From Parcubacteria group bacterium Gr01-1014_8 (GTDB lineage: Bacteria > Patescibacteriota > Minisyncoccia > Phycocordibacterales > UBA2100), in the NCBI GenBank assembly GCA_007376385.1, contig VMGC01000001.1, positions 160,001 to 224,000 of the forward strand: DNA of 64,000 nucleotides, given 5' to 3'. Positions 1-61,970 of this stretch are shown here, piece after piece (position 1 is the first letter of the stretch; each line of letters opens with the position of its first letter). The notes under the pieces were generated by a model. That model searched no databases. It was not told where the DNA came from and saw only the letters and a list, made by a program, of their open reading frames with translations. A program made the position numbers and the translations under genes.

Positions 1-1557
1 TACGCGACGAGCGTTGCTCTCGCATATGCGAAAGAGGCGGGGGTAAAACCGCGCGAGCTTGCAGAAAAACTTGTTGCATCGATGGGATCAGTTGAGGGAA
101 TCTCAAAGATTGATATTGCGGGGCCGGGGTTCATAAATTTTACTCTCGACCCTCGATTCGTATACAAGTCGCTCGAAGCGGGTCTTATGCAGGAAGAGCA
201 ATGGGGGAGCGGACTTTCGCGAAAAGGAAAGAAGATGATGATCGAATACACTGACCCGAACCCGTTCAAGGAATTTCACATTGGCCACCTTGTTCCGAAT
301 ACGCTTGGAGAAAGCATCTCGCGATTGCTAATGTTTTCCGGGGCGGAGGTAAAGCGCGCGAACTATCAGGGCGATGTCGGTATCCATGTCGCAAAGTCCC
401 TTTTCATTCAGTTGGAGAAGGGTATTACAGACCCGACAATCGAGGACCTTGCAAGCGCCTATCCTGAGGGCTCGCGCCGATACGATGAGGACCCTGAAGC
501 GAAAAAAGCCATTGATGAGCTGAACAAAAAGATTTACGACAAGAGCGACGAGAAGATCAATGCGTTGTACGCAAAGGGAAGAGCGCTCTCTCTCGCGCAC
601 TTTGAGGAGTTATACAAAGTTCTTGGAACAACATTCGATTACTATTTTTTCGAAAGCGAGACGGGACCGATCGGCGTGAAGGAAGTGCGGGCGCATCCGG
701 ACGTGTTCGAAGAAAGCGAAGGCGCCGTTGTGTTCAAGGGGGAGAAGTACGGCTTGCATACGCGTGTATTCATCAACAAGCTTGGGCTCCCGACGTACGA
801 AGCAAAAGAACTCGGGCTCGCGCGAATGAAGGCAGAGAAATATCAATTCGATCTTACGCTCACAATAACCGCAAATGAGCAGGCGGAATACTTCAAGGTG
901 GTCATGAAAGCCATGGAACTTTCGCTTCCTGACCTTCGCGGCAAACTCGCGTTCAAGACAAATGGTTTGCTTCGTTTTGCTGACGGAAAAATGTCATCAC
1001 GCCTTGGCAATATCATTACCGGGGAGGAGTTGATAGGCGACCTGAAAGAGAAGGCCATGGAACGCGCATCAAAGAGCAGGGCTACGGACGCGCAAAAACT
1101 GGCTGGTGAAGTTGCGGTTGGTGCCATCAAATATCAAATACTCAAGCAAGGGTTTGGGAAAGATATTATTTTCGACAGAGAACGGGCGCTCTCGCTAGAG
1201 GGCGATTCCGGTCCATACCTTCAGTACGCACATGCCCGAACGAGTGCAATTGTTGAAAAAGCGAGGGGGACGGGCATCGTCGTGAAATTCGATACTGCGA
1301 GCGGTGCGAGCGAACTCGTACGCCGCTTATACCGATTCAACGAGATTGTTATGCGCGCGACAGACGAGCTTGAGCCGCATCTTGTTGCCACCTACCTCAT
1401 CAATCTTGCGGCGGCATTCAATAGCTGGTACGCGAATGAGCAGATACTCGATGGAACACTTGGTGCGTCTCACAAAGTTGCGATAACTGATATCACGAGG
1501 CAGACGCTCAAAAATGGACTTTGGCTCCTCGGTATTCCGGCGCCGGAAAAGATGTGA
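1..1557 (+). CDS. argS: arginine--tRNA ligase (5' end truncated by the window edge)
   Basis: The ORF from 82 extends in frame back to position 1 (translation ...ALAYAKEAGVKPRELAEKL...). Class I HIGH-type motif HIGHLV, ArgRS core and the C-terminal DALR anticodon-binding region are present. Ends in TGA. Confidence 0.9.
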   Translation, partial: YATSVALAYAKEAGVKPRELAEKLVASMGSVEGISKIDIAGPGFINFTLDPRFVYKSLEAGLMQEEQWGSGLSRKGKKMMIEYTDPNPFKEFHIGHLVPNTLGESISRLLMFSGAEVKRANYQGDVGIHVAKSLFIQLEKGITDPTIEDLASAYPEGSRRYDEDPEAKKAIDELNKKIYDKSDEKINALYAKGRALSLAHFEELYKVLGTTFDYYFFESETGPIGVKEVRAHPDVFEESEGAVVFKGEKYGLHTRVFINKLGLPTYEAKELGLARMKAEKYQFDLTLTITANEQAEYFKVVMKAMELSLPDLRGKLAFKTNGLLRFADGKMSSRLGNIITGEELIGDLKEKAMERASKSRATDAQKLAGEVAVGAIKYQILKQGFGKDIIFDRERALSLEGDSGPYLQYAHARTSAIVEKARGTGIVVKFDTASGASELVRRLYRFNEIVMRATDELEPHLVATYLINLAAAFNSWYANEQILDGTLGASHKVAITDITRQTLKNGLWLLGIPAPEKM

Positions 1558-1595
1558 AGCGTTTCAGCGGAGCATATTTCTGTTAGGATGTCGAA

Positions 1596-4500
1596 ATGGC
1601 CGAACAAAACTCACAAGAAAAGAGCGAGACTGCAAAACGAGAAGAGGAGGTGTTGAAGTTTTGGAAAGAGAACACTATCTTCGAGAAATCGCTCAAAAAG
1701 AGAGCTCCGAAAGGCGAGTTTGTTTTTTATGATGGACCTCCGTTTGCGACTGGCTTGCCGCATACGGGTTCGCTCCTTTCATCCATCATCAAAGATGTCG
1801 TGCCGCGCTATAAAACAATGCGGGGATACGTGGTGCAGAGGCGCTGGGGATGGGATTGCCATGGGCTTCCTATCGAGAGCCTTATCGAAAAACGTCTGAA
1901 CTTAAAGACGAAGAAAGACATCCTTGATATCGGCATCGACACATTCAACGAGGCTGCACGGGCGAGTGTGATGGAATTTGAGCACGAGTGGGAAAAGTAT
2001 GTCGACCGTGTCGGCCGATGGGTCGACTTCAAGAATTCCTACAAAACGATGGATAACTCGTACATCGAGAGCGTATGGTGGGCTTTGAAGCAGTTGTATG
2101 AAAAATCGCTGTTGTATGAAGGCAATAAAGTACTCATGTATTGTCCTCACTGCGAGACGCCGCTTGCGAAAGCGGAGATAGCGATGGACCATACGTACAA
2201 AGACATTACAGAAGAGGCGGTCACTGTCCGGTTCAAGATAAAACGTCCGTCGCGCTACGGACTTCCCGAGAATACTCACTTCCTTGCGTGGACGACAACA
2301 CCGTGGACATTGCCGGGCAACGTCGGTCTTGCAGTCGGTCCTGGCATTAGTTATGTTCTTGTGCCGGAATCCGGCGGGATGGCCATCGTTGCCAAGGATC
2401 GCCTCGACATCTTGAAAAAAAGTGCACGTCCGCGGGTAAGCGTCGACATGGGCAGGGAATATAAAGGTTCGGAGCTTGTCGGGATGGAATATGAGCCTTT
2501 GTATGACGTTGTTTCGGTCATCAGACATGGGGGCAATAAACACGTTGTACTCCCTGCGGATTTTGTGTCGACGGAAGAGGGAACGGGCGTCGTGCACACG
2601 GCAGTGATGTACGGAGAAGATGACTTCGCACTGGGGCAAAAAGAAAATCTGCCCAAAGTGCAACTACTCAATCCGAATGGCACATACAACAAAGAAGCGC
2701 CAGCATTTTTACAAGGAAAATATATCAAGGAAGCAGAGAGAGATATTAAACGCGATCTCGAATCGCGCGGACTCCTTTTTGAACGCGAGAATCATACGCA
2801 CTCATATCCGCATTGCTATCGATGCGGGACGCCATTAATTTACAATGCTGTCGCGTCGTGGTTCATCAATATTCAGAAAGTGAAGGACAAAATGCTTTCA
2901 GAGAACGAAAAAGTACAGTGGGTACCGGAACATCTGAAGCACGGGCGCTTCAAGAATATCGTGGAGAATGCGCCAGATTGGACAATTTCGCGCAATCGCT
3001 TTTGGGCGTCGCCGCTTCCTATCTGGAAAGAGAAGAAAGGGAATCGCGTGATGGTTGTCGGTTCACTCGACGAGATAAAGAAAAAGTCGAAGAAAAGCGG
3101 TAATAAATATTTTGTGATGCGGCATGCGTGGTCAACCGGGAATGAGAATGGCACGCTGAGTTCAGACAAGGATGCGGACATCGGTCTGACAGAGAAAGGG
3201 ATCGCGGACGCTCGCGCATCCCTGCGAGCATTCGGAACGAAAGTGGATATCATCTATACGTCGTCCTTTAAACGAACCCGCGAGACTGCAGATATAGCAG
3301 CGGAGGTGCTTGGCGTGCCAAAGGAACATATCAAATCTGATGATAGATTAGGAGAATGCAATTTTGGTCCATACAGCGGGAAGACGCTTGAGGAGTACCA
3401 CGCGGCATTCCCGGAAAAGGCAGAGCGATTCAGTAAAGGCCCTGAAGGTGGGGAGACGTACGTAGAAATTCGTCGACGTATGATGTCGGTTCTGTCCGAA
3501 TTGGAAAAAAGTGAGAAAGGCAAAAATATCCTTATCATCTCGCACGGCACGCCGCTCTGGCTTCTCTGTGCATCTGCGAGAGGGCTCTCTCGCGAAGAGG
3601 CGCTCTCGACTCGCGAGACGGATTATCCGAAACAAAGTGTTATCACCGAACTCTCGTTCGTACCGCTTCCCTATAACGCCGACTATGAATTGGACCTTCA
3701 TCGACCGTATACGGATTCATTGACGCTCCTCGATGAAGAGGGGCGAGAATACGAACGAATTCCGGAGGTCGTGGACTGCTGGGTCGAGTCCGGCTCCATG
3801 CCCTTTGCGGAACAGCACTATCCATTCGAGAATAAATCGGTATTTGAAAAGAGAGCGCCGGGCGATTTTATCGCTGAATATATAGCTCAAACGAGGACGT
3901 GGTTCTACTATATGCACGCGATGGGCGTTCTCCTATTCGGAAGGCTCGCATTCCGAAATGTTGTTTCGACGGGAACCATTCTTGCGGCAGATTCATCTAA
4001 AATGTCGAAGTCGAAGGGAAACTACACGGACCCTTTGGTTGTTATGGACCGCTATGGCGCGGATGCGTTGCGCTTCTATTTGATGGGAAGCGTCGTGATG
4101 CAGGCAGAGGATCTGAATTTTCGCGATGAGGATGTTCGCGATACGCATAATCGCGTTATGGGGCTTTTGTGGAATACATATAAATTCTATGAGCTCTACA
4201 AAAAAGAATACGAAGGAAAAGCTTTTGCGAAAAGAAGCACGAATTTGTTGGACCAATGGGTCATCGCACGGCTTAATGAAACTGTGCGCACAGTTACAAA
4301 TGCGCTTGATGCGTTCAATATGCCGCCTGCAGCACGGGCCATACGAGATTTCGTTGAAGATTATTCCACGTGGTATGTGCGCCGCTCCAGGGAGCGCGTG
4401 AAGGGTTCTGATAAGGCGGATAAACAATTCGCGCTTGCGACGCAAAGAGAAGTACTGCTCGATGTTGCGAAAATGCTCGCGCCCATTGCTCCTTTCATAG

Positions 4501-7169: not shown

Positions 7170-7230
7170 ACATCGTGGCAGTAAGTATACTGCCGGCGGG
7201 TACGCGGCACTACGTGGTATTATTTTTGGG

Positions 7231-9195
7231 ATGCCGACGAATGGTTCTCCTTCACACGAAGACGAGCGAATTGACCGCTTGCGGCGCGCGATGTACTCGC
7301 GTTCGCTTTCTCCTAACATCAAGGATAAGCCGCGCCGTGAGATGCGCCCCGAGAAAAATCCCGTCGGAGAAGATTGGCAGAGGGCAGAGCCGAAGATACC
7401 AGGCTCGCTCATTGCCCCGCGCGGCATCGGCATGATGCGGCTTGTGATGAAATGGCTTGTCGCGGCTGCGGTAGCATTCTTTGTAGGTGCGCTTGGTTTT
7501 TTTGCATATTATTTCATCCTTGGCGGGGGGAGTTCTCCAGCGTCCCCCGGGAACATCGATATCTCGATCTCGGGCCCGCTGCAAATTGCAAGCGGCGAGC
7601 CGGCCGAATTGCAGGTTGCAATCGTCAATCGAAACCGAACATCATTACAGCTTGCAGACCTCGTCGTAAAATATCCGAATGGAACTCGCTCGCCGACGGA
7701 CCTTCTCACGTCGCTTCCTGATCAACGCATTCCACTCGGGACAATAGAACCCGGAGGGAGGAGACAAGGAACAGTGTCAGCTGTATTTTCCGGTGTTGAA
7801 GGCGAGCACGCGGACATCGCCGTTGAGTTGGAATATCGTCTTGAGAATTCGAGCGCCATCTTTGTTGCGACATCCCAATATCAATTTTTGTTTGCTTCTT
7901 CGCCACTCTCAATTTCTATCGAAGGTAATGATGAGACAGTGTCCGGACAGCCTATTGAGCTCAAGGTGACAATAGCGTCGAACTCTGACACGCCAGTCAA
8001 AGATGTCCTGTTCACGGGGAGCTATCCTTTCGGGTTCACGTTCGGCTCGGGCGAGCCGTCGCCAACGAAGATAGGCGGGGGAAATATGTGGTCGCTCGGA
8101 GATATATTTCCTGGACAAAAACGCACGATCATTTTGCAAGGCACTCTCGCAGGAGAATCCGGAGATGAGCGGGTCTTTCGTTTCAGTGCGGGGACGCGCA
8201 AGTCGAAGACGGACCAGACGATATCTACAACGCTTGCTGACTATGCGCATCATATAACCGTCTCAAAACCATTCCTGGGACTTGCTGTCCTGATCAATAA
8301 AGAAGCGGGTGGGAACACCACTGTCGCTCCTGGAGATTCTGTGACCGTGTCAGTCACGTATCAGAACAATCTTCAAACTGCTATTGCCGACGCGGTCATC
8401 GTCGCGCGTCTTTCGGGCGCTGAGATTGACGGCACGACGGTGCGCTCAACGGACGGATTCTATCGCTCCGCTGATAATGTTGTGCTCTGGGACAAATCAA
8501 CGACGAACGGCAGTTTGGCCACCATCGCGCCCGGGGCGAAGGGGACGGTTAGCTTTTCATTCGTCGTGCCGAAAGATGAAGCGATGCAGGCGCTCCGCAA
8601 CCCTCGGCTCGACATAACTGTGCACGCGGCGGGAAAACGAGTATCGCAAACGGGAGTACCGGAAACTCTGCAGGCGAGCGCGTCGCAAACTCTCCGCTTC
8701 GCAAGCGACTTGCAACTCGCGGCGCAAGGCCTCTATTACACGAATCCTTTCGGGTCGACCGGGCCAATGCCTCCGAAGGCTGGCACGGAGACGACATACG
8801 CGATAGTTTTCAACGTTACCAATACGACAAATAAAGTAGAGAATGCAACTGTACGAGCCACACTGCCGCCGTATGTTCGATGGGTAGGCGTCTACAGTCC
8901 GTCGACGGAAAAGTTGGTGTTCAATCCCAACGATTCGTCCGTGACCTGGCACATAGGCACGATAGAGCCGGGTGCCGGCATCGGCGGCGCTCTGCCGCGT
9001 CAGGCCGCCATCGCGATCGGTTTTACGCCATCCACAAGTCAGATAGGCCAGCAGCCGGCGCTCATACGGAGCATCTCGCTTTCTGGCACGGATGCATCCA
9101 CTCATGTGTCAGTGACGAAAACGACAACTGATATCACGACGAATATAGTCGGCGACCCTGGATTTTCTGCAGCGAACGCGACGGTCGTCAAATAA
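7231..9195 (+). CDS. membrane-anchored extracellular repeat protein (beta-rich, CARDB/DUF11-like repeats; family not certain)
   Basis: 654-aa ORF with an N-terminal TM anchor WLVAAAVAFFVGALGFFAYYFIL, followed by repeated ~100-aa T/S/G-rich beta-type modules. Confidence 0.6.
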   Translation: MPTNGSPSHEDERIDRLRRAMYSRSLSPNIKDKPRREMRPEKNPVGEDWQRAEPKIPGSLIAPRGIGMMRLVMKWLVAAAVAFFVGALGFFAYYFILGGGSSPASPGNIDISISGPLQIASGEPAELQVAIVNRNRTSLQLADLVVKYPNGTRSPTDLLTSLPDQRIPLGTIEPGGRRQGTVSAVFSGVEGEHADIAVELEYRLENSSAIFVATSQYQFLFASSPLSISIEGNDETVSGQPIELKVTIASNSDTPVKDVLFTGSYPFGFTFGSGEPSPTKIGGGNMWSLGDIFPGQKRTIILQGTLAGESGDERVFRFSAGTRKSKTDQTISTTLADYAHHITVSKPFLGLAVLINKEAGGNTTVAPGDSVTVSVTYQNNLQTAIADAVIVARLSGAEIDGTTVRSTDGFYRSADNVVLWDKSTTNGSLATIAPGAKGTVSFSFVVPKDEAMQALRNPRLDITVHAAGKRVSQTGVPETLQASASQTLRFASDLQLAAQGLYYTNPFGSTGPMPPKAGTETTYAIVFNVTNTTNKVENATVRATLPPYVRWVGVYSPSTEKLVFNPNDSSVTWHIGTIEPGAGIGGALPRQAAIAIGFTPSTSQIGQQPALIRSISLSGTDASTHVSVTKTTTDITTNIVGDPGFSAANATVVK

Positions 9196-21415: not shown

Positions 21416-22285
21416 TTGGATGTCCCTTATGTATACTTCATCTATATGCCGTCGGATCGACAAGATCCTCAAAAGGAATCTTCAAGGACATCATCTCAAT
21501 CAGAATCAATTCCCGTAACGGACATAAGACAAAGGACAGATATATCCATATTTTTAGACCCTGCATTACGGACAAACCCATTTGGCCATAATATATCTGC
21601 GGAGCATATCTATCGGAGGGCGGAGCGAATTGCAGCTGCGGTTCACTTACTCACGGGACACATGCCAAATGCTGAGCCCGTTCGAGATCTTGCCCGAAAA
21701 GAGAGCATTGCACTTCTCAATCATGCGCTCGGGTTACGCAGTGAATTGCGTGCTGCGGGCTCGGAATCATTCAAGCAGACACAAGCATCAATACGGAAAC
21801 TTATTTCTCTCATAAGACTACTCGGGATTTCTGGATACACATCAGCGCAAAATACAGAAACACTTGTGGATGCTCTCGATGAACTTGGGGCGCTTCTGAC
21901 CTCGTCCCAGCGCTCTCAGCTTGCAGAAGATACGTTCCTTACGCGTGATGAACTTACACCAAGGAGAAGTGAACCGGCTCGAGATTCTCAGACAATATCG
22001 TCACGTTCGTCACAACGTAGAGAGGTGCGCATGAAAGTAAGCGGGGTTTCTATAAAGGACAGACTCATAAGGGACACAGGTGTTGATGGCAGAAGCGCTG
22101 GAGCACGAGCCGAACGAATCGTAGACATCTTGCGCTCTGGGGGGATATTGGGAATCAAGGACATAGCGTCAAATTTGCCTGAATATAGCGAAAAAATGAT
22201 ACAGAGGGAACTTGCCGCATTGGTCGAAAGGAATACGGTCAAGAAACTAGGAGCAAAACGATGGAGTAAATATACACTTCTCTAG
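21416..22285 (+). CDS. hypothetical protein with a C-terminal winged-helix-like domain
   Basis: 289-aa ORF with an S/T/R-rich N-terminal half. The C-terminal part (...RAERIVDILRSGGILGIKDIASNLPEYSEKMIQRELAALVERNTVKK...) resembles a wHTH fold. The start is uncertain. Confidence 0.45.
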   Translation: MDVPYVYFIYMPSDRQDPQKESSRTSSQSESIPVTDIRQRTDISIFLDPALRTNPFGHNISAEHIYRRAERIAAAVHLLTGHMPNAEPVRDLARKESIALLNHALGLRSELRAAGSESFKQTQASIRKLISLIRLLGISGYTSAQNTETLVDALDELGALLTSSQRSQLAEDTFLTRDELTPRRSEPARDSQTISSRSSQRREVRMKVSGVSIKDRLIRDTGVDGRSAGARAERIVDILRSGGILGIKDIASNLPEYSEKMIQRELAALVERNTVKKLGAKRWSKYTLL

Positions 22286-22409
22286 GCCAATAAACAGCGG
22301 GCTATACGAGGGGAGCGCCCAAAATAACATGCTTTAGAGCGGGATAATGAGCGCACGTTAAATTAGTGCGACCGGAGGGCCGCTTCTATTTCGGGGAGGG
22401 TTCCCCGGT

Positions 22410-22436
22410 CCTGTGCAGTTGCACAGGGTTCTTTAC
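22410..22436 (+). terminator. hairpin terminator candidate downstream of the 21416-22285 gene
   Basis: cctgtgca-gt-tgcacagg followed by gttcttta. Confidence 0.35.
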
Positions 22437-23047
22437 AGACAAAGCAGATGCTTTTGAAGTAAGAAAGCCGGTTGACTTCGAGGGGGGTCAATTGTATTCT
22501 CAGGCCCGTAGCTAGCGGCCAGGCGCCAATAGGGAATGGTCCGTTTTATCCTCTAGTTATCCACAAAACAGGAAATCACGATTCAACTCGTGCTCTCGTC
22601 CTCATATATAATTGCCAGATGCTTCCTGTGCGTAACAGGTAGGCGTTTCGCAACTGGACGACACCCTGTCTCTGGTTGACTGCTCTTTGACAGAACATAT
22701 AAGGAAAGGAACGGGACACAGGGAATTACCCTATGTTCAGACTAAACTCACATTCATCCGAAAGATGAAAGAAACAACATGCATTGTGCGTCTATGAATA
22801 TAGACCATAAGCGTGCGCATACTGAAATGGCAGAACTTACCCGGATACGGACGAACGAAAGAATTCTGAATTACTTTCTTGGCGCTACCCCCTGATTCTC
22901 TTCTATTAGTAATGAGTCGGGGTTAGCCAATTATTAGTTGTCTGCTTCTGGCAGGCACACACAAATTGCATTCGCGGTTACGTCGAACTTCCGCGCATGC
23001 ATCCAACTCTTCCAATTAGGGAGAGATGGAAAAGGTCAAAATAAACT

Positions 23048-31578: not shown

Positions 31579-31716
31579 ATCGGCCCTTTCGAGACCGCAG
31601 GGCGTTTGCCGATTTCTGGCTCCTCGGCTCGGAGATGCAAAAACTGAGTTTTTCTATCTCGCTCGTTCTACGTCGCCAGTAAGAAAAGTAGAGCGTGTAT
31701 AATGCACAGTTTTGAA

Positions 31717-42131: not shown

Positions 42132-43110
42132 TCGTGCCAAATACGATAGTCCTTTGACAACTGAAGAACGACACAATTCTTGCTCGTAAGAGCAGGAGAA
42201 AAAGAAAGAATAAGAAATTTTCTGAAAAGAAAATTTCTTTTCGCGCCGTCGCTCGCGGATCATGAGAATAAATTCTCGCGATACCGCTCGCTCGGCGCGA
42301 TCAACAACATTGATTCGGCTATTGTCTTTGGCCGGATCAGTGCAGGAAAAAATGTATTTTTGCGCAACCACTTTTCACAACCACAAGGTTGTAGAAAAGT
42401 GCAGTCCTGTAATAGGGAAAGCAAAAATCAAAAACAATCCGCCTTCGCACACGTTGTGTGCTATGGCGGGACAAAGAAAGTCCCGACACGCCAAAAGGTG
42501 TGACGGGCGCAATGCTTGTCCGTCTTGTAGCGGACAAGCAAAGTAATAAACCAATAACGCGGTTCTCAAATTTCCAAACGGGAATTCTGAGAAAGGGCGT
42601 GCGGCGGATGCCTTGACAGAAGAAGGCGATGAAGGACGCAGTTCGGCGGCGATACGCTTCGGGGAGGTGCCAAGCAACCTTCGATCCGGAGATTTCCGAA
42701 TGGGGAAACCCCATAGAGCAACCCTCTATGACTCATGCTCTAAACAGCATAGAGAGCAGACCTTGGGAAGTGAAACATCTCAGTACCAAGAGGAAAAGAG
42801 ACCAATAGGTATTCCCTTAGTAGCGGCGAGCGAAACGGGAAAAGCACAAACTCAGCCACAAAATCGAAGCGCGATTTATTTCGCGAATCGATTTTGGGGA
42901 TGGGGGTTATAAGGCTACAGCGCTAGCAATAGGTAGAGTAAAAAAATGCTTAGTTAGAGGAAGCGCCTGGGAAGGCGCGCAACACAGGGTAATAGCCCCG
43001 TACTCGAAAACGAAGCATCTCTATGGCTGTAGTTCTTGAGTAACTCGAGACATGAATAGCTCGGGTGAATTTGCCGGGACTAACCGGTAATGCTACATAC
43101 TTCTTCTGAT

Positions 43111-43153
<43 letters not shown>

Positions 43154-44660
43154 GGTGAGGGGAGTGAAATAGACCTGAAACCGCATGCCTACAAGGAGTC
43201 GGAGCGGGCACCACAGTGCTCTTGAAATTTTTTGCAGAATTTTTGCAAAAGATCTTTTCGGGTGCAGTGTGGTGTCCGTCACGGCGTGCCTATTGAAGAA
43301 TGAGCCAACGAGTTAATGCATACAGCTGGCTAAGCCCTTTTCGGGTGGAGCCGTAGCGAAAGCGAGTGTGAATAGCGCGACTATAGTTGTATGTATTAGA
43401 CCCGAAGCCAGGTGAGCTACCCATGAGCAGGCTGAAGTTTATAGAAATATAGATGGAGGGCCGAACCCGTAGATTGTGCAACATCTTGGGATGACTTGTG
43501 GGTTGGAGTGAAAAGCTTATCGAACCTGGTAATAGCTGGTTCTCTCCGAAAGAGCTTTCGGGCTCGCGTCATGGATTACATATGGGGGTAGAGCACTGGA
43601 AGAAGCGGATAGGCCGAAAGGCCACTGCCTCTATCAAACTCCGAATACCATATGCGTACCGTGGCAGTTAGACGATGGGGGCGAAGCTCCATTCGTCAAA
43701 AGGGAAACAGCCCAGACCGCCAGTTAAGGTCCCTAAATCTATGCTCAGTGCATTTCCAAGGAGGTGAAATTTCACAGACAGTGAGGATGTTGGCTTAGAA
43801 GCAGCCACCATTCAAAGAAAGCGTAACAGCTCACTCACTCAGAGATTTCGCGCCACAAATGATCGGGGCTTAAGCATAGTACCGAAACTGCGGATTCAGT
43901 ACGTCTTCGGATGTACTGTCTGGTAGGAGAGCGTTCTCTGTGCGATGAAGGTAAAGGGGTGACCCATGCTGGAGCGCAGGGAAGTGAAAATGTTGGCACG
44001 AGTAACCGCAAGGCAGGTGAGATTCCTGCCCGCCGAAAGAACAAGGTTTCCTTCGCAATGGAGATCAACGAAGGGTTAGTCGGTCCTAAGCCAATGGCGA
44101 ATGCCGCAGGCGATGGATTCATGGTTAATATTCCATGACTCGGAATTGGTGCGATGGAGTGACGGAGTGTTGTACCTCAAGCATATTATGGATTTATGTT
44201 CAGGCCGTGAGGATGCTTTTCAGGAAAATCCGGAGAGCACAGTCCAAGCGGAGTGGAAAAGTGGAGGCCTCGGCCGAAACTGATTTGAGGGAGCACGCTT
44301 CCAAGAAAAACTTCTAAGCTTATAACCAATGACGAACCGTACCGCAAACCGACACAGGTGTTCTGGTCGAATAGACTAAGGCGAACGGGTGAGAGATGCT
44401 CAAGGAACTCGGCAAAAAAGTGGCCGTACGTTAGCAATAAGGCCTGCCCAATACAGTGATGTATGGGGCCGCAGATAATTATTCCCAGGCGACTGTTTAC
44501 CAAAAACACAGCTCCCTGCAAACTCGTAAGAGGAAGTATAGGGGGTGATGCCTGACCAATGCCGGAAGGTCAAGTGTGGTCGGTCTCATATAGCAATATA
44601 TGTTGCTGGCACTACATAAGCCCCGGTCAATGTCGGCGATAACTATAATCGTCCTAAGGT

Positions 44661-45360
44661 TTCCCGCTTAAGAAATTGAGCGGGGAAGGACTGGGACGAT
44701 CATAGAATCGAATAAACAGCGAAAGAAAATACCAAAGCTGCCTCTCTGTGCAGTAATGCACAAGTGGTCCTAGAAACATGGCTATATGCTGGAAACCCTA
44801 TGGTATAATTATTCCATAGATGAGTAATCAGCAGGAAAGGCCAGAGATGAAAGGGTGGATCGTCGGTTTTACCGACGGCGAAGGATGCTTTTCAATAAGC
44901 ATGTTTCGCAACAAAACCACCAAGTTTGGTTGGCAAGTATTCCCAGAGTTTGTAATAACTCAGGGAAAGAAAAGTTTGCCAGCACTCGAAACTTTCCAAA
45001 ACTTCTTTAAGTGCGGAAAGATATACGAGAACGCTAGGTACGATAATCATCGTGAATATCTGTATCGATACTGTGTACGATCAATTTCGGATTTGCGGGA
45101 GAAAATAATCCCGTTTTTTCGAAAAAACAAATTGTATACAGCCAAACAAAAAGATTTCGAACTGTTTGCAGATGTCATAGAAAAGGTGTATCGAAAAGAA
45201 CATCTTTTAGAATCGGGATTGCGAGCGATAGCGCGCAAGATCGAACAGATGAATCGCAAGAAGAAATCAACATTTCTGGAATCCTCAGAGACTACACGCC
45301 ATGCCCCTAAATCTAAATAAGATCGGGTGAAGATATAGTCCAAAGGTAATAGGAACCTAG
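44661..45360 (+). mobile_element. group I intron 1 (after the E. coli U1917 equivalent) encoding an intact LAGLIDADG endonuclease
   Basis: The upstream exon ends in T, the intron ends in G (omega-G), and the downstream exon resumes at AGCGAAATTCCT. Conserved R-like (cagagactacacg) and S (gaagatatagtcc) core elements are present. Confidence 0.75.
44820..45320 (+). CDS. LAGLIDADG homing endonuclease (single-motif, 166 aa)
   Basis: Motif IVGFTDGEGCFS with the pattern characteristic of LAGLIDADG homing endonucleases. The 3' end of the ORF overlaps the intron R element. Confidence 0.8.
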   Translation: MSNQQERPEMKGWIVGFTDGEGCFSISMFRNKTTKFGWQVFPEFVITQGKKSLPALETFQNFFKCGKIYENARYDNHREYLYRYCVRSISDLREKIIPFFRKNKLYTAKQKDFELFADVIEKVYRKEHLLESGLRAIARKIEQMNRKKKSTFLESSETTRHAPKSK

Positions 45361-45372
45361 AGCGAAATTCCT

Positions 45373-45681
45373 AGAAGACTGGGACTATCAGTCAAAAACT
45401 ACTGATAGCAAATTCTGCTATATGCTGGAAACTCCGAGTATCCAACAGTACCCTGACGAAATGGAAGGGTAAAAATCTGTTGGTGCGGACAATCAGCAGG
45501 GAAGTCGTAATTGACCCCTCAACGACTACACGCAGAACTCCACGAAGCTCATCAATCCGATGCTGTTTCGGGAGGTGATATAGTCTGAACTGCATGGCGA
45601 CATGCAGAGTTTGGCTCGCGCCAAACCGCTTCAAACAAATTGAAGTCATTATTCTCACTAGAGAATAGTAAGTAACAGAAT
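45373..45681 (+). mobile_element. group I intron 2a (ORF-less; carries a decayed homing-endonuclease N-terminal remnant)
   Basis: Follows the 12-nt exon agcgaaattcct. Contains the R element tcaacgactacacg, the S element gtgatatagtc and a terminal G before the exon TGTCTGGT. Its 5' region is similar to intron 1 (gactgggac..gctatatgctggaaac). The remnant reading frame (aat cag cag gga agt cgt aat tga) parallels the homing-endonuclease 1 N-terminus SNQQERP. Confidence 0.5.
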
Positions 45682-45689
45682 GTGTCTGG

Positions 45690-46149
45690 TAACTGGATTG
45701 CCAGTTAGTACAGCGATGTACTACAAAAGATCCGCCTGTCAGCAATGACGGTAGTAATTCGGCTTATAACGGTGGAATCCTACTCGGAGCACTTTAGACG
45801 AGGTGCGTTGATGAAAGGATAATACCGTGGGAAGTCTTGTGAGTTTCGTGGAGGGCAACCTCCGTGCGAGAGCGCCTCGCCCGGTTGAGGGCGGTCGGTC
45901 GGCATTGGTGCTGACTGTCTGATCTGGAGCCTCTGTCCAGGCTCTCGCATCAATCTTCTCATCATGGTGATGGGAACTTCCACGAAACTCGCAATGACCC
46001 CGTAACGACTTAGCGCGAAAGCGCTGGAAGTGTCTCAAAAACACTTAACACGCCGACTCTGCAATGCGCAGAAGAAGATATAGTCTAATGCCCGAAGTAA
46101 TTCGGGGAGAGTGTCATATTGCGCGAAATATGACGATCAAACTCAAATG
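45690..46149 (+). mobile_element. group I intron 2b (ORF-less; carries a decayed homing-endonuclease remnant homologous to the intron 3 endonuclease)
   Basis: Follows the 8-nt exon tgtctggt. Contains the R-like element cgtaacgacttagc, the S element gaagatatagtc and an omega-G before the exon AAGTTCAGACG. The remnant reading frame is KDNTVGSLVSF..., compared with MDNTVGSLTQL in intron 3; the ATG has been lost. Confidence 0.5.
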
Positions 46150-46699
46150 AAGTTCAGACGCGCACGAATGGTATAACGACTTGGGAACTGTCTCGAGCAT
46201 TTGCCCGGTGAAAATACAAGGGCGGTGAAGATGCCGCCTTCCTGCAGCTAGACGAAAAGACCCCAGAAGCTTTACTGTAATTTGGTATTGAGGATACGAT
46301 TTTTCCGCGTAGCGTAAGTGGGAGGCTTTGAAGCAAGGATCTCGGTTCTTGTGGAGCCGTCAATGCAACACCACTCCTAAAAATTGTATTTTCTAACTTC
46401 CATAGCAAAACTGTGGAAAGACAGTACCTGATGGACAGTTTCGGTGGGGCGCTGTCCTCCTAAAAAGTAACGGAGGAGCCTATTAAGGTCACCTAGGTGC
46501 GAATGGAAACCGTACCGGTAGTGCAATGGCAAAAGGTGGCTTGACTGCGAGTCGTACGTGACAAGCAGGCGCGAAAGCGGAGCATAATGAACCGATGGTT
46601 CGCATTAGATGCGACCAAAGATTAACGGATAAAAGTTACTCTGGGGATAACAGGCTGGTTTCGCCTAAGAGTCCAAATCGACGGCGAAGTTCGGCACCT

Positions 46700-47542
46700 T
46701 AACAAATCGGGGTGCGACGTAAGCAATTACGTAGCTTGGCTCACACATGAGACCAAGAACCAACATGTGTGCAGTTCAAATCGTGGCTTATAACGGTGAA
46801 CTCCATGGTATTATAGAACAATCGTTCTATAGTATATGGACAATACCGTGGGAAGTTTAACTCAATTACAGCGATCAATAATTATCGGTAGTCTCTTAGG
46901 TGATGGCTACTTACGGATCGTACCGCGCAGATACAATGCGTTTCTCGAGATCAATCATTCGTATTCACAAAAAGAATATGTTGATTGGACATTCGAGATG
47001 CTCAAATCGATCTGTAGAAGCGGTCCGAAGATGCGAAACGGAAATGGTGTGCGAATTGCATACCGTTTTACGACTCGTCAAATGCCGGAAATCACCGAAT
47101 TGTTCAAAGTGTTTTATGCCAATGGCAAGAAATAAATTTCGAACAATTTAAGATTAGATCCGATAATGCTTGCTGTATGGTTCATGGATGATGGAAGTAG
47201 GTGTAGCGTTGAGAACGTGTACCTTAATACTCAGCAGTTTAATTTCGATGATCAAGAAAAATGCAGGGCAATGCTCATGCGGCTTGGTATCGAAACAACT
47301 CTCAATAAGGACAAGAAGTATTTGAGAGTGAGGATAAAAACATCCTCAATCCCAAAACTTCATAAAATTATCTCACCGCACATCATTCCATCCATGAAAT
47401 ATAAATTGGGTTATAACCCCGTAGAGACTCGCTTCTTCGGAAGCGGAGTTACTGACTCTGTAATGAGCAGTAGCTAACACGCCACCTCCTTTCAATAGAA
47501 AGGATGATGATATAGTCCGATCCTTCCAGTAATGGAAGAAAA
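46700..47542 (+). mobile_element. group I intron 3 (near the E. coli 2499/2500 equivalent) with a double-motif LAGLIDADG gene
   Basis: The upstream exon ends ...GGCACCT, the intron ends ...cattG, and the downstream exon resumes CGATGTCGGCTCATC. The S element is gatgatatagtcc. Confidence 0.7.
46836..47477 (+). pseudogene. double-motif LAGLIDADG homing endonuclease interrupted by a single in-frame TAA (47133-47135)
   Basis: First motif IIGSLLGDGYL and second motif LAVWFMDDGS are in the same reading frame. The 30 nt between the stop and the next ATG also read in frame (ISNNLRLDPI), consistent with one ancestral ORF of about 213 aa. Confidence 0.7.
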
Positions 47543-47786
47543 AATGACATTGCGATGTCGGCTCATCTTAGCGCGGGGCTGGAGAAGGTCCCAAGCGTAT
47601 GGCTGTTCGCCATTTAAAAAGGTACGTGAGCTGGGTTCAAACCGTCGTGAGACAGGTTGGTCTTAATCTGCTGTAGGCGTTGATTCTTGAGGAGACTCAT
47701 TTTTAGTACGAGAGGACCGAAATGAACTGACCTCTGGTCTGGGGGCTGTAGTACCAACTGCATCGCCCCGTAGCTATGTCGGGATT

Positions 47787-47819
<33 letters not shown>

Positions 47820-48002
47820 GACTCCAAGATTAGGAATCGTTATAGACTCGTGGGAGATGACCACGTTGATAGGCACCAGGTGGAAGCGCAGTAATGCGTT
47901 GAGCCGAGGTGTACTAATTAGTCGACAGAATTCTCGAAAGGAATTTTGGGAGTCGCGATACTGGTTTATTGCGACGAGCGAGGACGAAGCGAAAATTTAT
48001 TG

Positions 48003-48090
48003 GCGACGTAGGGCGAGAGAAGCGAAAATGTACTCATTTTCATTTCCGAGCCGAGGAGCCAAAATAGGGTCGAATACCCTTTATTTTCAT
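48003..48090 (+). repeat. conserved ~88-bp element, copy A (23S-5S spacer)
   Basis: gcgacgtagggcgagagaagcgaaaatgtactcattttcatttccgagccgaggagccaaaatagggtcgaataccctttattttcat. It shares an identical 30-mer (gtactcattttcatttccgagccgaggagc) with copy B at 61884-61970, and about 80% identity overall. Confidence 0.6.
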
Positions 48091-48256
48091 TTCGTCCGAG
48101 CGAAGGCGCAACAAAGGGTTACTACCCTTTATTGCGAAGTAACAAAACGCATTCTTTCTTTCTGTGGTTCGCCGAAGCTCGCACAAGCGAGCGTAGGAGA
48201 CTGCATTGTGTCGTTCTTCGGTTGCCGAAGGCAAAGTTCATTGCAATTGAAGTTTT

Positions 48257-48367
48257 TGTTCTGGTGATTTATCGCTGGGGTCACACCTGTTCTCATTCCG
48301 AACACAGTAGTTAAGCCCAGTTGAGGCGATGGTAGTCGCAAGGCGAGAGTAGCTAGTCGCCAGAACA
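48257..48367 (+). rRNA. rrf: 5S ribosomal RNA
   Basis: ctggtga...tcacacctgttctcattccgaacacagtagttaagcccag...gatggtagt...gagagtag...tcgccag. Helix I pairs (ctggtga / tcgccag) and loop C is conserved. Confidence 0.85.
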
Positions 48368-48385
48368 AAGATTTCAAAGCAACAA

Positions 48386-48808: not shown

Positions 48809-51190
48809 ATGCTGAAACAAGATGAGCATTGGTGGTCGCCGGGGGTGCGTAAGCGGATCATGGACGGTCCCGCCGCTGATTCGAAAATTGTGGACAGCGG
48901 CGTAGGGTCCAAAACGCCCGAGGGAAGCGGATCGTGGTCCGAAACTGCGCAGCAAATTCTCGACTCTTTGTTCGCTACTAAAAACAGCAGGAGTTTCGAG
49001 GAATATCTCGAACGAAACTTCCTTACAGAACCTCGTATCTCCGACAAAGTGACATTACAATCACTAGCATATGCCCGCGACAAGCTGGCGGCGTTGGGTA
49101 GCGACCGCCGTAACAGAGAAGACGGCACAGATGCAGAACTTATTCAAAATGCGCATGTCGCACTCGTCCGAGCAATTATAAAGGTGCGTGTCGCGCAGGA
49201 ATCCACACCCAAATCGAATAAAGAACGGGAGCCGTATAAAGACCCGACTATTGTCACAGCAGCAGAAGTCCAACAATCGGCGATAGACACGCAGCGAGAC
49301 TTGCATATTCGCGCCGAACAGACCGAGCATGAAATTCGGGTTCTTCTGGATAAGTTATTTCACGCCAGTATTCTTGGGAAAAAAGAAAGACAATCAGTCG
49401 TAGATGAGATTGAAACCTACGTAAAAGAAGCCAAAGAGAGTATCGATGAGAGGCGCTATGCGTATCTGCAGATGTCGCTCGCTTCAGTTTGGCACTCGCT
49501 TCAGGATATTGAGAGAAAAAAAGAGCCAAGCGCTGAACTACTTGCAGAACTATCGAAACGCGCCTACGACGAACTCTATGGCAAGTTACGGGAGACTGCG
49601 CGCGCGCTTTTTAATGTTGAGCTTGATTCGTACGCACTTTCTGACGAGCGGGATGTTATTTCTGTTTTCACGAATACAAGCCACACATCTCGATTGCATG
49701 AGTTGGGTTTGACAGCGGAAGAAATTGACTCGTTCCGCATCGCGGCGGGGTTTCTCCAAAAACACCAATCAGATTATCGGTTGGTCGGCTCATCGGCATT
49801 TGCCACGAAGCTATTTCTAGGTTCGTTCAATAAAGTTACGTGCAGAAATCATATAGAAAATGTCACCGTTGCGCTTGATAAAGCACTTGTGCGTCGAATG
49901 AGAGATGAGCTCGTTCAATTACTTCCCGAGCTTTGGAATGCGGGGGTATATAAGTACACACCTGAAGTCATCATAGATAAAATGATGGAAAAAGCCGACG
50001 CACAGTATCAAGCGGGATTTCGGAATAGTTATTCAAGATTGCGCCCAAAACTGGAAGAAGCATTCCGCGATGCAGAAGAGAGACTTCGAGCAAGTGGCGT
50101 TGAAGCGACGGCTCGCAAAGTGGAATTTAACGAGGAAGAATGGGCACTCGATGCGATATTGAGCGAGAATCGGGCACGGCTTGAATATCTTGAATTCATC
50201 AATCCATCGAACGGTGCCGCAGAAAAAGCGAAATTCTTTGATGCGTTGAAAAGAGGCGAAGAATATAATCCGCAATTAGAATACGCGGTGAAGGAATCTC
50301 AGGAGCAAGCACTCAAGCTTGCGTCGCATACAATAGAAAGAGCAGGAAGAATGGTGAAAACGGGTCCAAACGTCGATATATTCGTTCGGGAAATAGTAGT
50401 GCAGGAGCGTACACTTGAGTTTATACGAGGCATTGGCGCGGAACACTGGTCGCAGCGTCGTGCCGAACGACTGTTCGGTCGCATCGACAGATTTCTTCTC
50501 GATGACACAGTTGCCGAGCTCAAAGAAATGCCAAGCGGTTTTTTTGAGAACGGAGGAGAGAATCTTTCGAAAGACGAGGTTAGAACGCAGGCAATGAAGG
50601 CTTTGAAAGATGTTGGCGCTTCAGATTGGTCATTCGACTTTCATGCGCAAGAAAATGTGCCATCTGTCGTGCTCGCGAGCAGGAAGCAAGTCTTTTTCCA
50701 GAAACGCGAAGTGTATCCGGAACAATTCGTGAACATTCTCATAGCGCATGAAATTTACGGCCATGTTGCACAAGATAATAATGCTTTGAAGCACGGAGTC
50801 GGACTTCTTCAGAGCGGTCTCGGCAATTACGAGCCACTGATGGAGGGTTTTGCGCTTGATCAGGAACGGAAAGTAAATCCTCTCACGGAACTTCGCATTA
50901 AGTTCTACTACGCTGCAGTCGCGCATGCAGCTAAACACTCCTTGCATGATACGTTCCAGTATCTCAAACGATGGCTTCCCGATGAGGATGCTTATGCACT
51001 GGCGTCACGGGTGAAGCGGGGGATGCGGGACACGAGTAAGCCCGGTACGTGGCTTAAGGACAAGATATATTTGGAGGGACTAACAGAACTGGATCATATG
51101 TCGGCTGAAGATCAGGCGCTTGTGAGGCACGGCAAGTTTGAAGGAGCTCTGACGGCGAACGTTCGTCGGCTCGTTTCCAATCGGCTCTAG
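48809..51190 (+). CDS. DUF1704/QEGLA-family-like protein (putative zincin-type metallopeptidase) with a ~550-aa helical N-terminal extension
   Basis: The C-terminal region has HExxH (ILIAHEIYGHV) followed about 25 aa later by ...PLMEGFALDQE (a QEGLA-like motif). 793 aa. Confidence 0.55.
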   Translation: MLKQDEHWWSPGVRKRIMDGPAADSKIVDSGVGSKTPEGSGSWSETAQQILDSLFATKNSRSFEEYLERNFLTEPRISDKVTLQSLAYARDKLAALGSDRRNREDGTDAELIQNAHVALVRAIIKVRVAQESTPKSNKEREPYKDPTIVTAAEVQQSAIDTQRDLHIRAEQTEHEIRVLLDKLFHASILGKKERQSVVDEIETYVKEAKESIDERRYAYLQMSLASVWHSLQDIERKKEPSAELLAELSKRAYDELYGKLRETARALFNVELDSYALSDERDVISVFTNTSHTSRLHELGLTAEEIDSFRIAAGFLQKHQSDYRLVGSSAFATKLFLGSFNKVTCRNHIENVTVALDKALVRRMRDELVQLLPELWNAGVYKYTPEVIIDKMMEKADAQYQAGFRNSYSRLRPKLEEAFRDAEERLRASGVEATARKVEFNEEEWALDAILSENRARLEYLEFINPSNGAAEKAKFFDALKRGEEYNPQLEYAVKESQEQALKLASHTIERAGRMVKTGPNVDIFVREIVVQERTLEFIRGIGAEHWSQRRAERLFGRIDRFLLDDTVAELKEMPSGFFENGGENLSKDEVRTQAMKALKDVGASDWSFDFHAQENVPSVVLASRKQVFFQKREVYPEQFVNILIAHEIYGHVAQDNNALKHGVGLLQSGLGNYEPLMEGFALDQERKVNPLTELRIKFYYAAVAHAAKHSLHDTFQYLKRWLPDEDAYALASRVKRGMRDTSKPGTWLKDKIYLEGLTELDHMSAEDQALVRHGKFEGALTANVRRLVSNRL

Positions 51191-61862: not shown

Positions 61863-61883
61863 AACCGCCTAAGTCTCTTATTA

Positions 61884-61970
61884 GCGACGTAGAGCGAGTG
61901 AAGTGAAAGTGTACTCATTTTCATTTCCGAGCCGAGGAGCTAACAAGGGTAGAATATCCTTTATTTTCAT
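61884..61970 (+). repeat. conserved ~88-bp element, copy B (immediately upstream of, and in frame with, folD)
   Basis: gcgacgtagagcgagtgaagtgaaagtgtactcattttcatttccgagccgaggagctaacaagggtagaatatcctttattttcat. See copy A at 48003-48090. Confidence 0.6.

Follow-up and report, generated by a model that had tools for sequence, protein, structure and literature searches.

The 23S ribosomal RNA (rRNA) gene of Parcubacteria group bacterium Gr01-1014_8, a groundwater member of the candidate phyla radiation (CPR), appears from its sequence to contain four group I introns of the self-splicing type, which occupy the conserved sites L1931, L1943, L1951, and L2500, a reading to which we assign a probability of about 0.9. 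The gene lies in a 64,000-nucleotide (nt) stretch of the genome (assembly GCA_007376385.1, contig VMGC01000001.1, positions 160,001 to 224,000 of the forward strand), which is the window analysed here and in which all coordinates are given. Five proteins encoded in the window are identical to NCBI entries for this organism, a metagenome-assembled genome (MAG), on a contig of 407,897 bp. The gene, its predicted introns, and the two micro-exons between them are as follows.

42579 to 47938, plus strand: 23S rRNA gene (Rfam LSU_rRNA_bacteria, 2090.8 bits, model positions 1-2925)
44661 to 45360, plus strand: intron 1, predicted group I intron at L1931, 700 nt, following T1931 and ending in G
45361 to 45372, plus strand: exon 2, the 12-nt micro-exon AGCGAAATTCCT, identical to E. 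coli 1932-1943
45373 to 45682, plus strand: intron 2a, predicted group I intron at L1943 lacking an open reading frame (ORF), 310 nt (Rfam Intron_gpI, 67.1 bits)
45683 to 45690, plus strand: exon 3, the 8-nt micro-exon TGTCTGGT, E. coli 1944-1951, the 5' strand of helix 71
45691 to 46149, plus strand: intron 2b, predicted ORF-less group I intron at L1951, 459 nt (Rfam Intron_gpI, 24.7 bits, E=0.0017)
46700 to 47552, plus strand: intron 3, predicted group I intron at L2500, 853 nt, between GGCACCT and CGATGTCGG

Unspliced, the gene measures 5360 nt, which is about 2.4 kb over the length of the LSU model; without the four introns it comes to 3038 nt and is 71.6% identical to the E. coli 23S rRNA across 2798 aligned positions. 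Exons were mapped against the E. coli gene (L001, positions 650-3552) and the 23S genes of relatives, with the numbering checked at the modified positions 1911, 1915, 1917, 1939, and 1962 and raised by 1 near 2500, where the reference copy is one base short. The four insertions follow U1931, U1943, U1951, and U2500, and the exon blocks read ...CGTCCTAAGGT, intron 1, AGCGAAATTCCT, intron 2a, TGTCTGGT, intron 2b, AAGTTCAGACGCGCACGAATGG ... GGCACCT, intron 3, CGATGTCGGCTCATC. Exon 3 differs from the corresponding E. coli sequence TGTCGGGT by a sole mismatch, G1948U, which is compensated by C1958A in exon 4; helix 71 reads GUCUG...CAGAC in the window versus GUCGG...CCGAC in E. coli. Both the micro-exons of 12 and 8 nt and this compensatory change had been read from the letters in a first-pass annotation of the same DNA, and both are borne out by the comparison with E. 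coli, the former also by that with the relatives and the latter also by the covariation described below.

By our own arithmetic, the probability of meeting exact matches to a 12-mer and an 8-mer, correctly ordered, within 1.47 kb by chance is about 1e-6. Because of this low probability, and because relatives carry the ligated sequence uninterrupted, a chance origin of the micro-exons is implausible. Removal of the introns restores the host sequence exactly: the predicted junctions are GGT-AGCG, CCT-TGTC, GGT-AAGT, and CCT-CGAT, and the exons, once joined, agree with E. coli and are the same as the sequence that relatives carry without interruption. In three of these (L186-L188), which carry the L1931 intron only, AGCGAAATTCCTTGTCTGGTAAGTTCAGACGC is uninterrupted and is exactly the ligation product predicted for the window, and in L186 exon 2 runs directly into exon 3 and exon 3 into exon 4. 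The L1943 site is empty in L123, L184, and L186, the L1951 site in L186 and L128, and the L2500 site in L128, L166, and L175, the last of which has a 2500 site nearly identical to the ligated exons of the window.

Apart from the introns, the gene shows no insertion of more than 50 nt relative to E. coli except for two expansion segments, one of about 71 nt at E. coli ~276-282 (42858-42934) and one of about 47 nt at E. coli ~545 (43210-43256), near the classic helix-25 site of intervening sequences (IVSs). The latter is absent or different in L123, where spliced positions 623-703 remain unaligned, and could be of the IVS type. The spliced 23S rRNA also has a 30-nt deletion at E. coli 1720-1749. 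As to the place of the crowded sites in the ribosome, the first-pass annotation had named the region of intersubunit bridges B2a and B3. By E. coli helix numbering, the sites lie 3' of helix 69, in helices 70 and 71, and only helix 71 (bridge B3) is split, helix 69 (bridge B2a) being uninterrupted.

The identity of the four segments as group I introns is indicated by several features. Every 5' splice site follows a T and all four introns end in G, a rule that had been proposed from the letters and that holds in four cases out of four. Each intron also contains one GATATAGTC (at 45332, 45577, 46077, and 47509) and, upstream of it, a partner GACT[A/T/C], the two together forming the strands of P7; these are the S element and R-like element that had been claimed for each intron. 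When 44600-47600 was scanned permissively with Rfam, at E values up to 10, Intron_gpI (RF00028, gathering score 50) matched at all four places. The match of intron 2a (E=7.7e-15, model positions 1-253) lies above the gathering score, so that the covariance-model check suggested in the first-pass annotation recognises all four cores and clears the family threshold at L1943 only. The claim of four group I introns itself is upheld by the cores, the splice-site rule, and the empty sites of relatives, and only the boundaries needed correction: the 700 nt of intron 1 stand, introns 2a and 2b measure 310 and 459 nt rather than 309 and 460, and intron 3 measures 853 rather than 843 nt and ends at 47552 instead of 47542.

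The same scan returned no group II family, and group II introns were rejected for that reason. A twintron arrangement was rejected as well, as each intron has its own complete set of helices P1-P9 and the spacers of 12 and 8 nt consist of rRNA exon that runs unbroken in relatives. Two further Rfam matches inside the region, to naRNA4 (E=4.6) and to the c-di-GMP-II riboswitch (E=4.8), were dismissed as chance.

The four introns fall into two structural types, 1 with 2a and 2b with 3, as judged by shared repeats (D1 and D7 in the first pair, D3 and D4 in the second) and by alignment scores (z=7.5 for intron 1 versus 2a and z=12.6 for 2b versus 3). The core of the L1931 and L1943 introns has the form GCUAUAUGCUGGAAAC ... 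AAUCAGCAGG ... GACUACACGC; that of the L1951 and L2500 introns has P7.1 and P7.2 hairpins.

An explanation of a different kind is that the segments are expansion or intervening sequences, either retained in the mature rRNA or excised by RNase III without ligation to give a fragmented 23S rRNA of the sort that many bacteria with IVSs in helix 25 or helix 45 have. IVSs do exist in CPR and other bacteria, some are expected among CPR insertions (Tsurumaki et al. 2024, PMC11270868), and the 23S gene of the window does have the two small expansions noted above (E. coli ~276-282 and ~545), which are not introns. However, a group I core, a preceding U, and a terminal G are common to all four segments; the sites are those to which group I introns classically home and are not IVS sites; introns among them carry homing endonuclease genes; and excision without ligation would set free pieces of 12 and 8 nt from which helix 71 and its junction are formed. 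An RNase III-type IVS of the helix 25/45 hairpin kind was rejected on the same grounds, namely insertion at 1931, 1943, 1951, and 2500 and the group I cores present there. We consider this explanation very improbable and retain that of four group I introns.

Intron 2a, at L1943, is the most readily recognised of the four. Its P1 pairs UCCU, followed across the splice site by AG, with CUGGGA (45379-45384, the GGGA being at 45381-45384) and places a U.G pair at the splice site; its P10 pairs AGAC with the GUCU at bases 2-5 of exon 3, and on inspection the core elements P2-P9.3 are present. In metagenomes, CTAAGGTAGCGAAATTCCT with a following base other than T was found at 55 loci, 30 of which begin an intron homologous to 2a at the exact L1943 position, so that the family has no fewer than 30 members in metagenomes. 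An alignment of 20 distinct copies shows double-sided changes in 44 of the 71 base pairs of P1-P9.2, with 94% of the cells canonical. The compensatory changes cover P3, P4, P7, P8, P9, P9.1, and P9.2; for example, U-A is replaced by G-C in P4 in 14 of the 20, U-A by C-G in P7 in 5, and G-C by C-G in P9 in 6, and P3 contains three covarying pairs. This covariation is strong evidence for a functional ribozyme family. A scan of a genome collection (596 Gb) with AGCGAAATTCCTV..GGGR gave only chance matches in protein-coding DNA, its 12-base anchor being too short: 120 loci were returned, and none of the 10 checked was rRNA.

Intron 2b, at L1951, has a P1 of CUGGU with GCCAG (45700-45704), again with a U.G pair, and a P10 of AACU with AGUU. 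Its core consists of P3 (UCGGC/GCCGA), P4 (ACGGU/ACCGU), P6, P7, P7.1 (GCGC-GAAA-GCGC), P7.2, P8, and P9, and P6 bears a GC-rich extension of 140 nt with arms at 45837-45852 and 45979-45994. It aligns with 11 other L1951 introns across P2-P9. Among these 12 sequences, P1, P2, P3, P8, and P9 covary by eye, P3 taking the forms UCGGC/GCCGA, ACGGC/GCCGU, CCGGC/GCCGG, and GUGGC/GCCAC. An extra hairpin between P2 and P3 (GAUCCGCCUGUCAGCAAUGACGGUAGUAAU, 45731-45759) is absent in all 11 of the other L1951 introns aligned. Small ORFs of 52 and 68 amino acids (aa), for which no Pfam match is on record, are present in P6 of the L1951 introns of L184 (1480-1638) and L185 (1336-1542), the same place as the GC-rich non-coding extension of intron 2b (45837-45994).

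The pairing of the L1951 intron with the 8-nt exon is supported by a three-way covariation. Across the L1943-L1951 loci, exon base 1948, its helix-71 partner 1958, and a base of the L1951 guide change together, and three combinations were found: TGTCTGGT with AAGTTCAGAC (CAGAC) and the guide GCCAG; TGTCAGGT with AAGTTCTGAC (CTGAC) and GCCTG; and TGTCGGGT with AAGTTCCGAC (CCGAC) and GCCCG or GCCCC. P1 of the L1951 intron is thereby proved to rest on the final five bases of that 8-nt exon.

Intron 3, at L2500, pairs GCACCU with GGGUGC (46710-46715) in P1, with a U.G pair, and AUCG with CGAU in P10 directly 5' of the guide, which on inspection is the textbook arrangement. Its P3 is GUGGC/GCCAC, followed by core blocks as in intron 2b, and its Rfam match (32.4 bits, E=8.9e-6) covers the 3' core. 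For this site one homologue, that of L123, was examined.

Introns 1 and 3 contain ORFs of the LAGLIDADG families:

44820 to 45320, plus strand: intron-1 ORF, single-motif LAGLIDADG, 166 aa, intact (Pfam LAGLIDADG_1, E=2.3e-25)
46836 to 47477, plus strand: intron-3 ORF, LAGLIDADG_2 gene matched by Pfam in two halves, with one in-frame TAA (47133-47135)

The predicted endonuclease of intron 1 scores 89.9 bits against a LAGLIDADG_1 cut-off of 23.1 and has 2205 homologues, the closest being 96% identical, while no record with an identical protein turned up; the start of its ORF overlaps the P4' (Q) element AAUCAGCAGG. The two halves of the intron-3 ORF lie in one frame, match positions 1-89 (E=4.3e-20) and 104-168 (E=7.1e-11) of the LAGLIDADG_2 profile, and are collinear with the intact 207-aa L2500 endonuclease of L123, the stop excepted. 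On this reading of the sequence, the intron-3 ORF would be either a pseudogene or a gene that needs readthrough.

Several points weigh against the assignment of four splicing group I introns. The Rfam scores of introns 1 (17.5 bits, E=0.26), 2b (24.7 bits, E=0.0017), and 3 (32.4 bits, E=8.9e-6) lie below the gathering score, and these three were identified through hand-assigned cores and relatives. The weak scores are attributed to the ORF that fills P6 in introns 1 and 3, to the 140-nt P6 extension of intron 2b, and to the P7.1/P7.2 hairpins of introns 2b and 3. Intron 1 has a recognisable core, with P3 CAUGGC/GCCAUG, P4 formed by UGCUGG and the Q element AAUCAGCAGG, and P7 formed by GACUA (45290) and the UAGUC within GATATAGTC (45332). 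On inspection, however, no conventional P1 was found in it, with a U.G pair and then Watson-Crick pairing to the AAGG immediately upstream. The seven L1931 introns that were compared share instead a variable, covarying hairpin from intron base 1, followed by an invariant A and the invariant GGACUGGGACGAU (44688-44700). In the RNAalifold consensus, UGGGACGAU pairs with exon bases -15 to -5, leaving an internal loop of 3-4 nt, and the splice-site U is stacked on the hairpin opposite an invariant A or G (A27 or G28). A long exon-guide pairing of this kind is the model that we infer for intron 1. It is without support from covariation, because the upstream exon AATCGTCCTAAGGT is identical in all seven. 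The L1931 intron of Simkania has reportedly been called 'unspliced' in the title of a paper, and intron retention is possible in principle. For all four introns, splicing, its order, and mobility are deduced from sequence.

With these reservations, a splicing pathway may be proposed. The whole precursor would be transcribed, and each intron would fold into its own ribozyme, which would hold the last four to six bases of the upstream exon on an internal guide (P1) with the splice-site U opposite G. Guanosine attack would cut the 5' splice site, the exons would be joined after the terminal G, and four such events would rebuild a normal 3038-nt 23S rRNA. The first-pass annotation had seen a difficulty in exons shorter than a typical P1/P10 guide; however, the guides need only the last four (L1943) or five (L1951) exon bases, for which exons of 12 and 8 nt are long enough. 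P10 of the L1943 intron, on bases 2-5 of exon 3, does overlap P1 of the L1951 intron, on bases 4-8, by two bases. As the two pairings could not coexist, splicing of the L1943 and L1951 introns is probably sequential.

Relatives were reached through homologues of the intron-1 endonuclease, and homologous L1931 introns were found in L123, L128, L184-L186, and L190. L123, from Hainich groundwater, is syntenic with the window and has a 23S rRNA 83-91% identical to that of the window; it carries introns at L1931, L1951 (188 nt), L2449, and L2500, and its L1943 site is empty. Its insert at L2449 (7241-8159, 919 nt) contains a 200-aa LAGLIDADG_2 ORF. L128 (GCA_005239955.1) has the L1931 intron and inserts near 2593, with empty 1943, 1951, and 2500 sites; the inserts (7198-7512 and 7559-8398) lie around 2593, and one of them contains a 159-aa LAGLIDADG_1 ORF. 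The different intron sets of syntenic relatives show rapid intron turnover within the lineage.

It could be argued that the crowding is an artefact of metagenome assembly, in which strain variants were stitched together, and that no single genome contains all four introns, or even the three close ones. rRNA genes are hard to assemble from metagenomes, and an independent short-read assembly of one sample (Logan SRR8863434, a 13.9-kb contig encoding the 793-aa protein described below) breaks just downstream of the rRNA region. However, a 1885-nt contig from another sample (L185, ENA ERZ27279942) has the same order, namely the L1931 intron, the 12-nt exon, the L1943 intron, the 8-nt exon, the L1951 intron (567 nt), and then AAGTTCAGACGC, with a differing sequence: its L1931 endonuclease is 83% identical to that of the window. 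The 8-nt exon between L1943 and L1951 introns was found in 18 of the 30 metagenome L1943 loci, and the joins of a chimera would need to fall inside the 12- and 8-nt exons. We therefore judge an artefact to be highly unlikely, and the crowding to be something that CPR bacteria show repeatedly and that is for the most part documented, not a feature unique to this genome. The first-pass annotation had called it an extreme case, a description that does not survive the insertions reported for CPR bacteria (82% of 23S genes, up to 16 in one gene), the same packing in L185, the 8-nt exon in 18 other loci, and a precedent in KP308720.1. On balance that annotation is partly supported, being right in substance but overstating both the mechanistic difficulty and the rarity of the arrangement.

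The four introns are probably selfish homing elements that have reached different points of the homing cycle: the endonuclease gene of intron 1 is intact, that of intron 3 has one fresh stop, and introns 2a and 2b, in which no ORF was found, would have lost theirs. Intact, stopped, and lost ORFs are the spread expected across a cycle of gain, decay, and loss. Since the three crowded sites lie within 20 bp, the L1931, L1943, and L1951 introns could be co-converted together when one endonuclease cuts an empty allele.

Within the L1943 family, short introns (274-343 nt, as in the window) have no ORF, and the long members (1050-1222 nt) contain in P6 an ORF of about 285 aa (284 aa in L161) with two LAGLIDADG motifs. 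The ends of this ORF run into the core, the first codons overlapping P5'/P4' and the last codons the R element. Pfam LAGLIDADG_1 matches its C-terminal half, and among proteins of solved structure it is closest to monomeric enzymes such as I-PanMI and I-OnuI. The lineage comprises about 250 protein clusters, and in Candidatus Taylorbacteria genomes some of them bear no other name than "hypothetical protein" or "LAGLIDADG family homing endonuclease". Within the searchable literature, to which subscription journals and curated intron databases did not belong, no paper was found that names an rRNA intron at L1943. The guide motif ACUGGGAC is common to the L1931 and L1943 introns, and its GGGA faces exon UCCU in both, an observation that would fit an origin of the L1943 element from an intron of the L1931 type. 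From these sequences we offer, at somewhat less than even odds, the tentative proposal that L1943 is an undescribed homing site with its own two-motif lineage of about 285 aa, that its ribozyme is an L1931-type (IB4-type) ribozyme relocated to the next UCCU 12 nt downstream, and that the trio forms one co-converting block in which ORF-less introns hitch-hike on the endonuclease of a neighbour.

The surroundings of the 23S gene contain three further features.

48260 to 48365, plus strand: 5S rRNA gene (Rfam 5S_rRNA, 73.9 bits), downstream of the 23S gene
42151 to 42188, plus strand: 5' arm of an inverted repeat, 38 nt, 79% complementary to 48194-48231
48194 to 48231, plus strand: 3' arm, pairing with 42151-42188 about 6 kb away, with the whole 23S gene between the arms

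A second inverted repeat (48247-48267 and 48357-48377, 21 nt, 86%) flanks the 5S gene. By analogy with bacterial rRNA operons, the repeats around the two genes are probably precursor processing stems. No 16S gene (Rfam) and no tRNA gene (ARAGORN) was found within the 64-kb window; the rRNA genes of this small CPR genome are unlinked in that the 23S-5S pair stands apart from 16S. The idea that this gene is a decaying copy and that a second, intron-free copy supplies the ribosomes gains a little from the view being limited to 64 kb of the genome and from the missing link to 16S, but it is the least probable of all, as the exons cover the LSU model in full and are conserved at every junction, the helix-71 change is compensated, the 5S gene and the flanking processing stem are present, CPR genomes usually have a single rRNA copy (PMC11270868), and syntenic relatives hold comparable intron sets at the same locus.

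Other observations concern the spacer and the region beyond it. An element of about 90 nt in the 23S-5S spacer (47997-48090) is repeated at 61878-61970 and, on the minus strand, at 31609-31682, with 89% and 79% identity, and could be a small mobile repeat. A 48-nt spacer piece (48081-48127), which overlaps only the last ~10 nt of that element, matches an insert in the P9.2 loop of the L1943 intron of L180 (124-170). Just downstream of the rRNA genes, a protein of 793 aa (48809-51190, plus strand) matches Pfam MATCAP at residues 481-765 (E=6e-18); MATCAP denotes microtubule-associated tyrosine carboxypeptidase, a family unexpected in a CPR bacterium.

The value of the window is that it provides a clean, fully mapped example of group I introns crowded into one functional centre of the ribosome in a form that should still be removable, with three ribozymes inside 20 rRNA bases around helix 71 and two guides that share an 8-nt exon. 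The comparative set of 30 L1943 and 12 L1951 introns, together with the three-way covariation, offers a test bed for ordered splicing and co-conversion. The L1943 site and its endonuclease lineage have not been singled out by surveys of CPR rRNA insertions; the general picture, already established for CPR bacteria, is unchanged.

Among the closest known systems are the CPR insertions themselves. Insertions were reported in 82% of 348 CPR 23S genes, with up to 16 in one rRNA gene; 45% of the 23S insertions were classed as group I introns, often with LAGLIDADG genes, and the frequent sites are 1917, 1931, 1952, 2593, 2604, and 2657 (Tsurumaki et al. 2024, PMC11270868). According to Brown et al. 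2015, as given in that survey, CPR rRNA insertions are removed from transcripts. The window resembles these genes in its host group, in having many introns per gene and LAGLIDADG group I introns in the 3' half of the 23S gene, and in two of its sites, 1931 and 1952 (the latter being L1951). It differs in that the survey stresses single-domain LAGLIDADG proteins, whereas the L1943 lineage is a two-motif one of about 285 aa, and in its micro-exons, which the survey does not discuss; the numbers 1943 and 2500 are absent from the text of PMC11270868.

The 23S gene of Synechococcus sp. C9 has group I introns at three sites, L1917, L1931, and L2593 (Haugen et al. 2007, PMC1995217). As in the window, multiple introns with homing endonuclease genes are present in one bacterial 23S gene, ORFs run into the core, as in intron 1, and a short exon, of 14 nt by subtraction, separates the L1917 and L1931 introns. 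Unlike the window, this cyanobacterium has three introns rather than four and uses L1917 rather than L1943 and L1951, and all of its ORFs are intact. A second comparison is provided by the archaeal (DPANN) sequence KP308720.1, in which IB4 introns were annotated at LSU/1923 (21440-21763) and LSU/1931 (21772-22514); in the same work, L1931 introns were classed as IB4 and those at L2500 and L2593 as IA3 (Nawrocki, Jones and Eddy 2018, PMC6125680). [quoted passage not shown]

At single sites, the relatives are the L1931 introns of Thermotoga (699-700 nt, with a 162-aa LAGLIDADG protein) and the L1951 intron of Coxiella burnetii (720 nt, with a 157-aa LAGLIDADG protein) (PMC1995217). The former are actively self-splicing according to the title of Nesbo and Doolittle 2003, as it stands in the reference list of PMC3984707. 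The sites are those of the window and the Thermotoga introns have the size of intron 1, but these genes have single introns at these sites, and the L1951 intron of Coxiella burnetii has an ORF, whereas in that of the window the ORF is lost and P6 has acquired a structured extension of 140 nt. The phenomenon, the sites L1931, L1951, and L2500, and the 8-nt exon all have precedents; the L1943 site and its double-motif LAGLIDADG lineage of about 285 aa, neither of which was found in the searchable literature, may be new.

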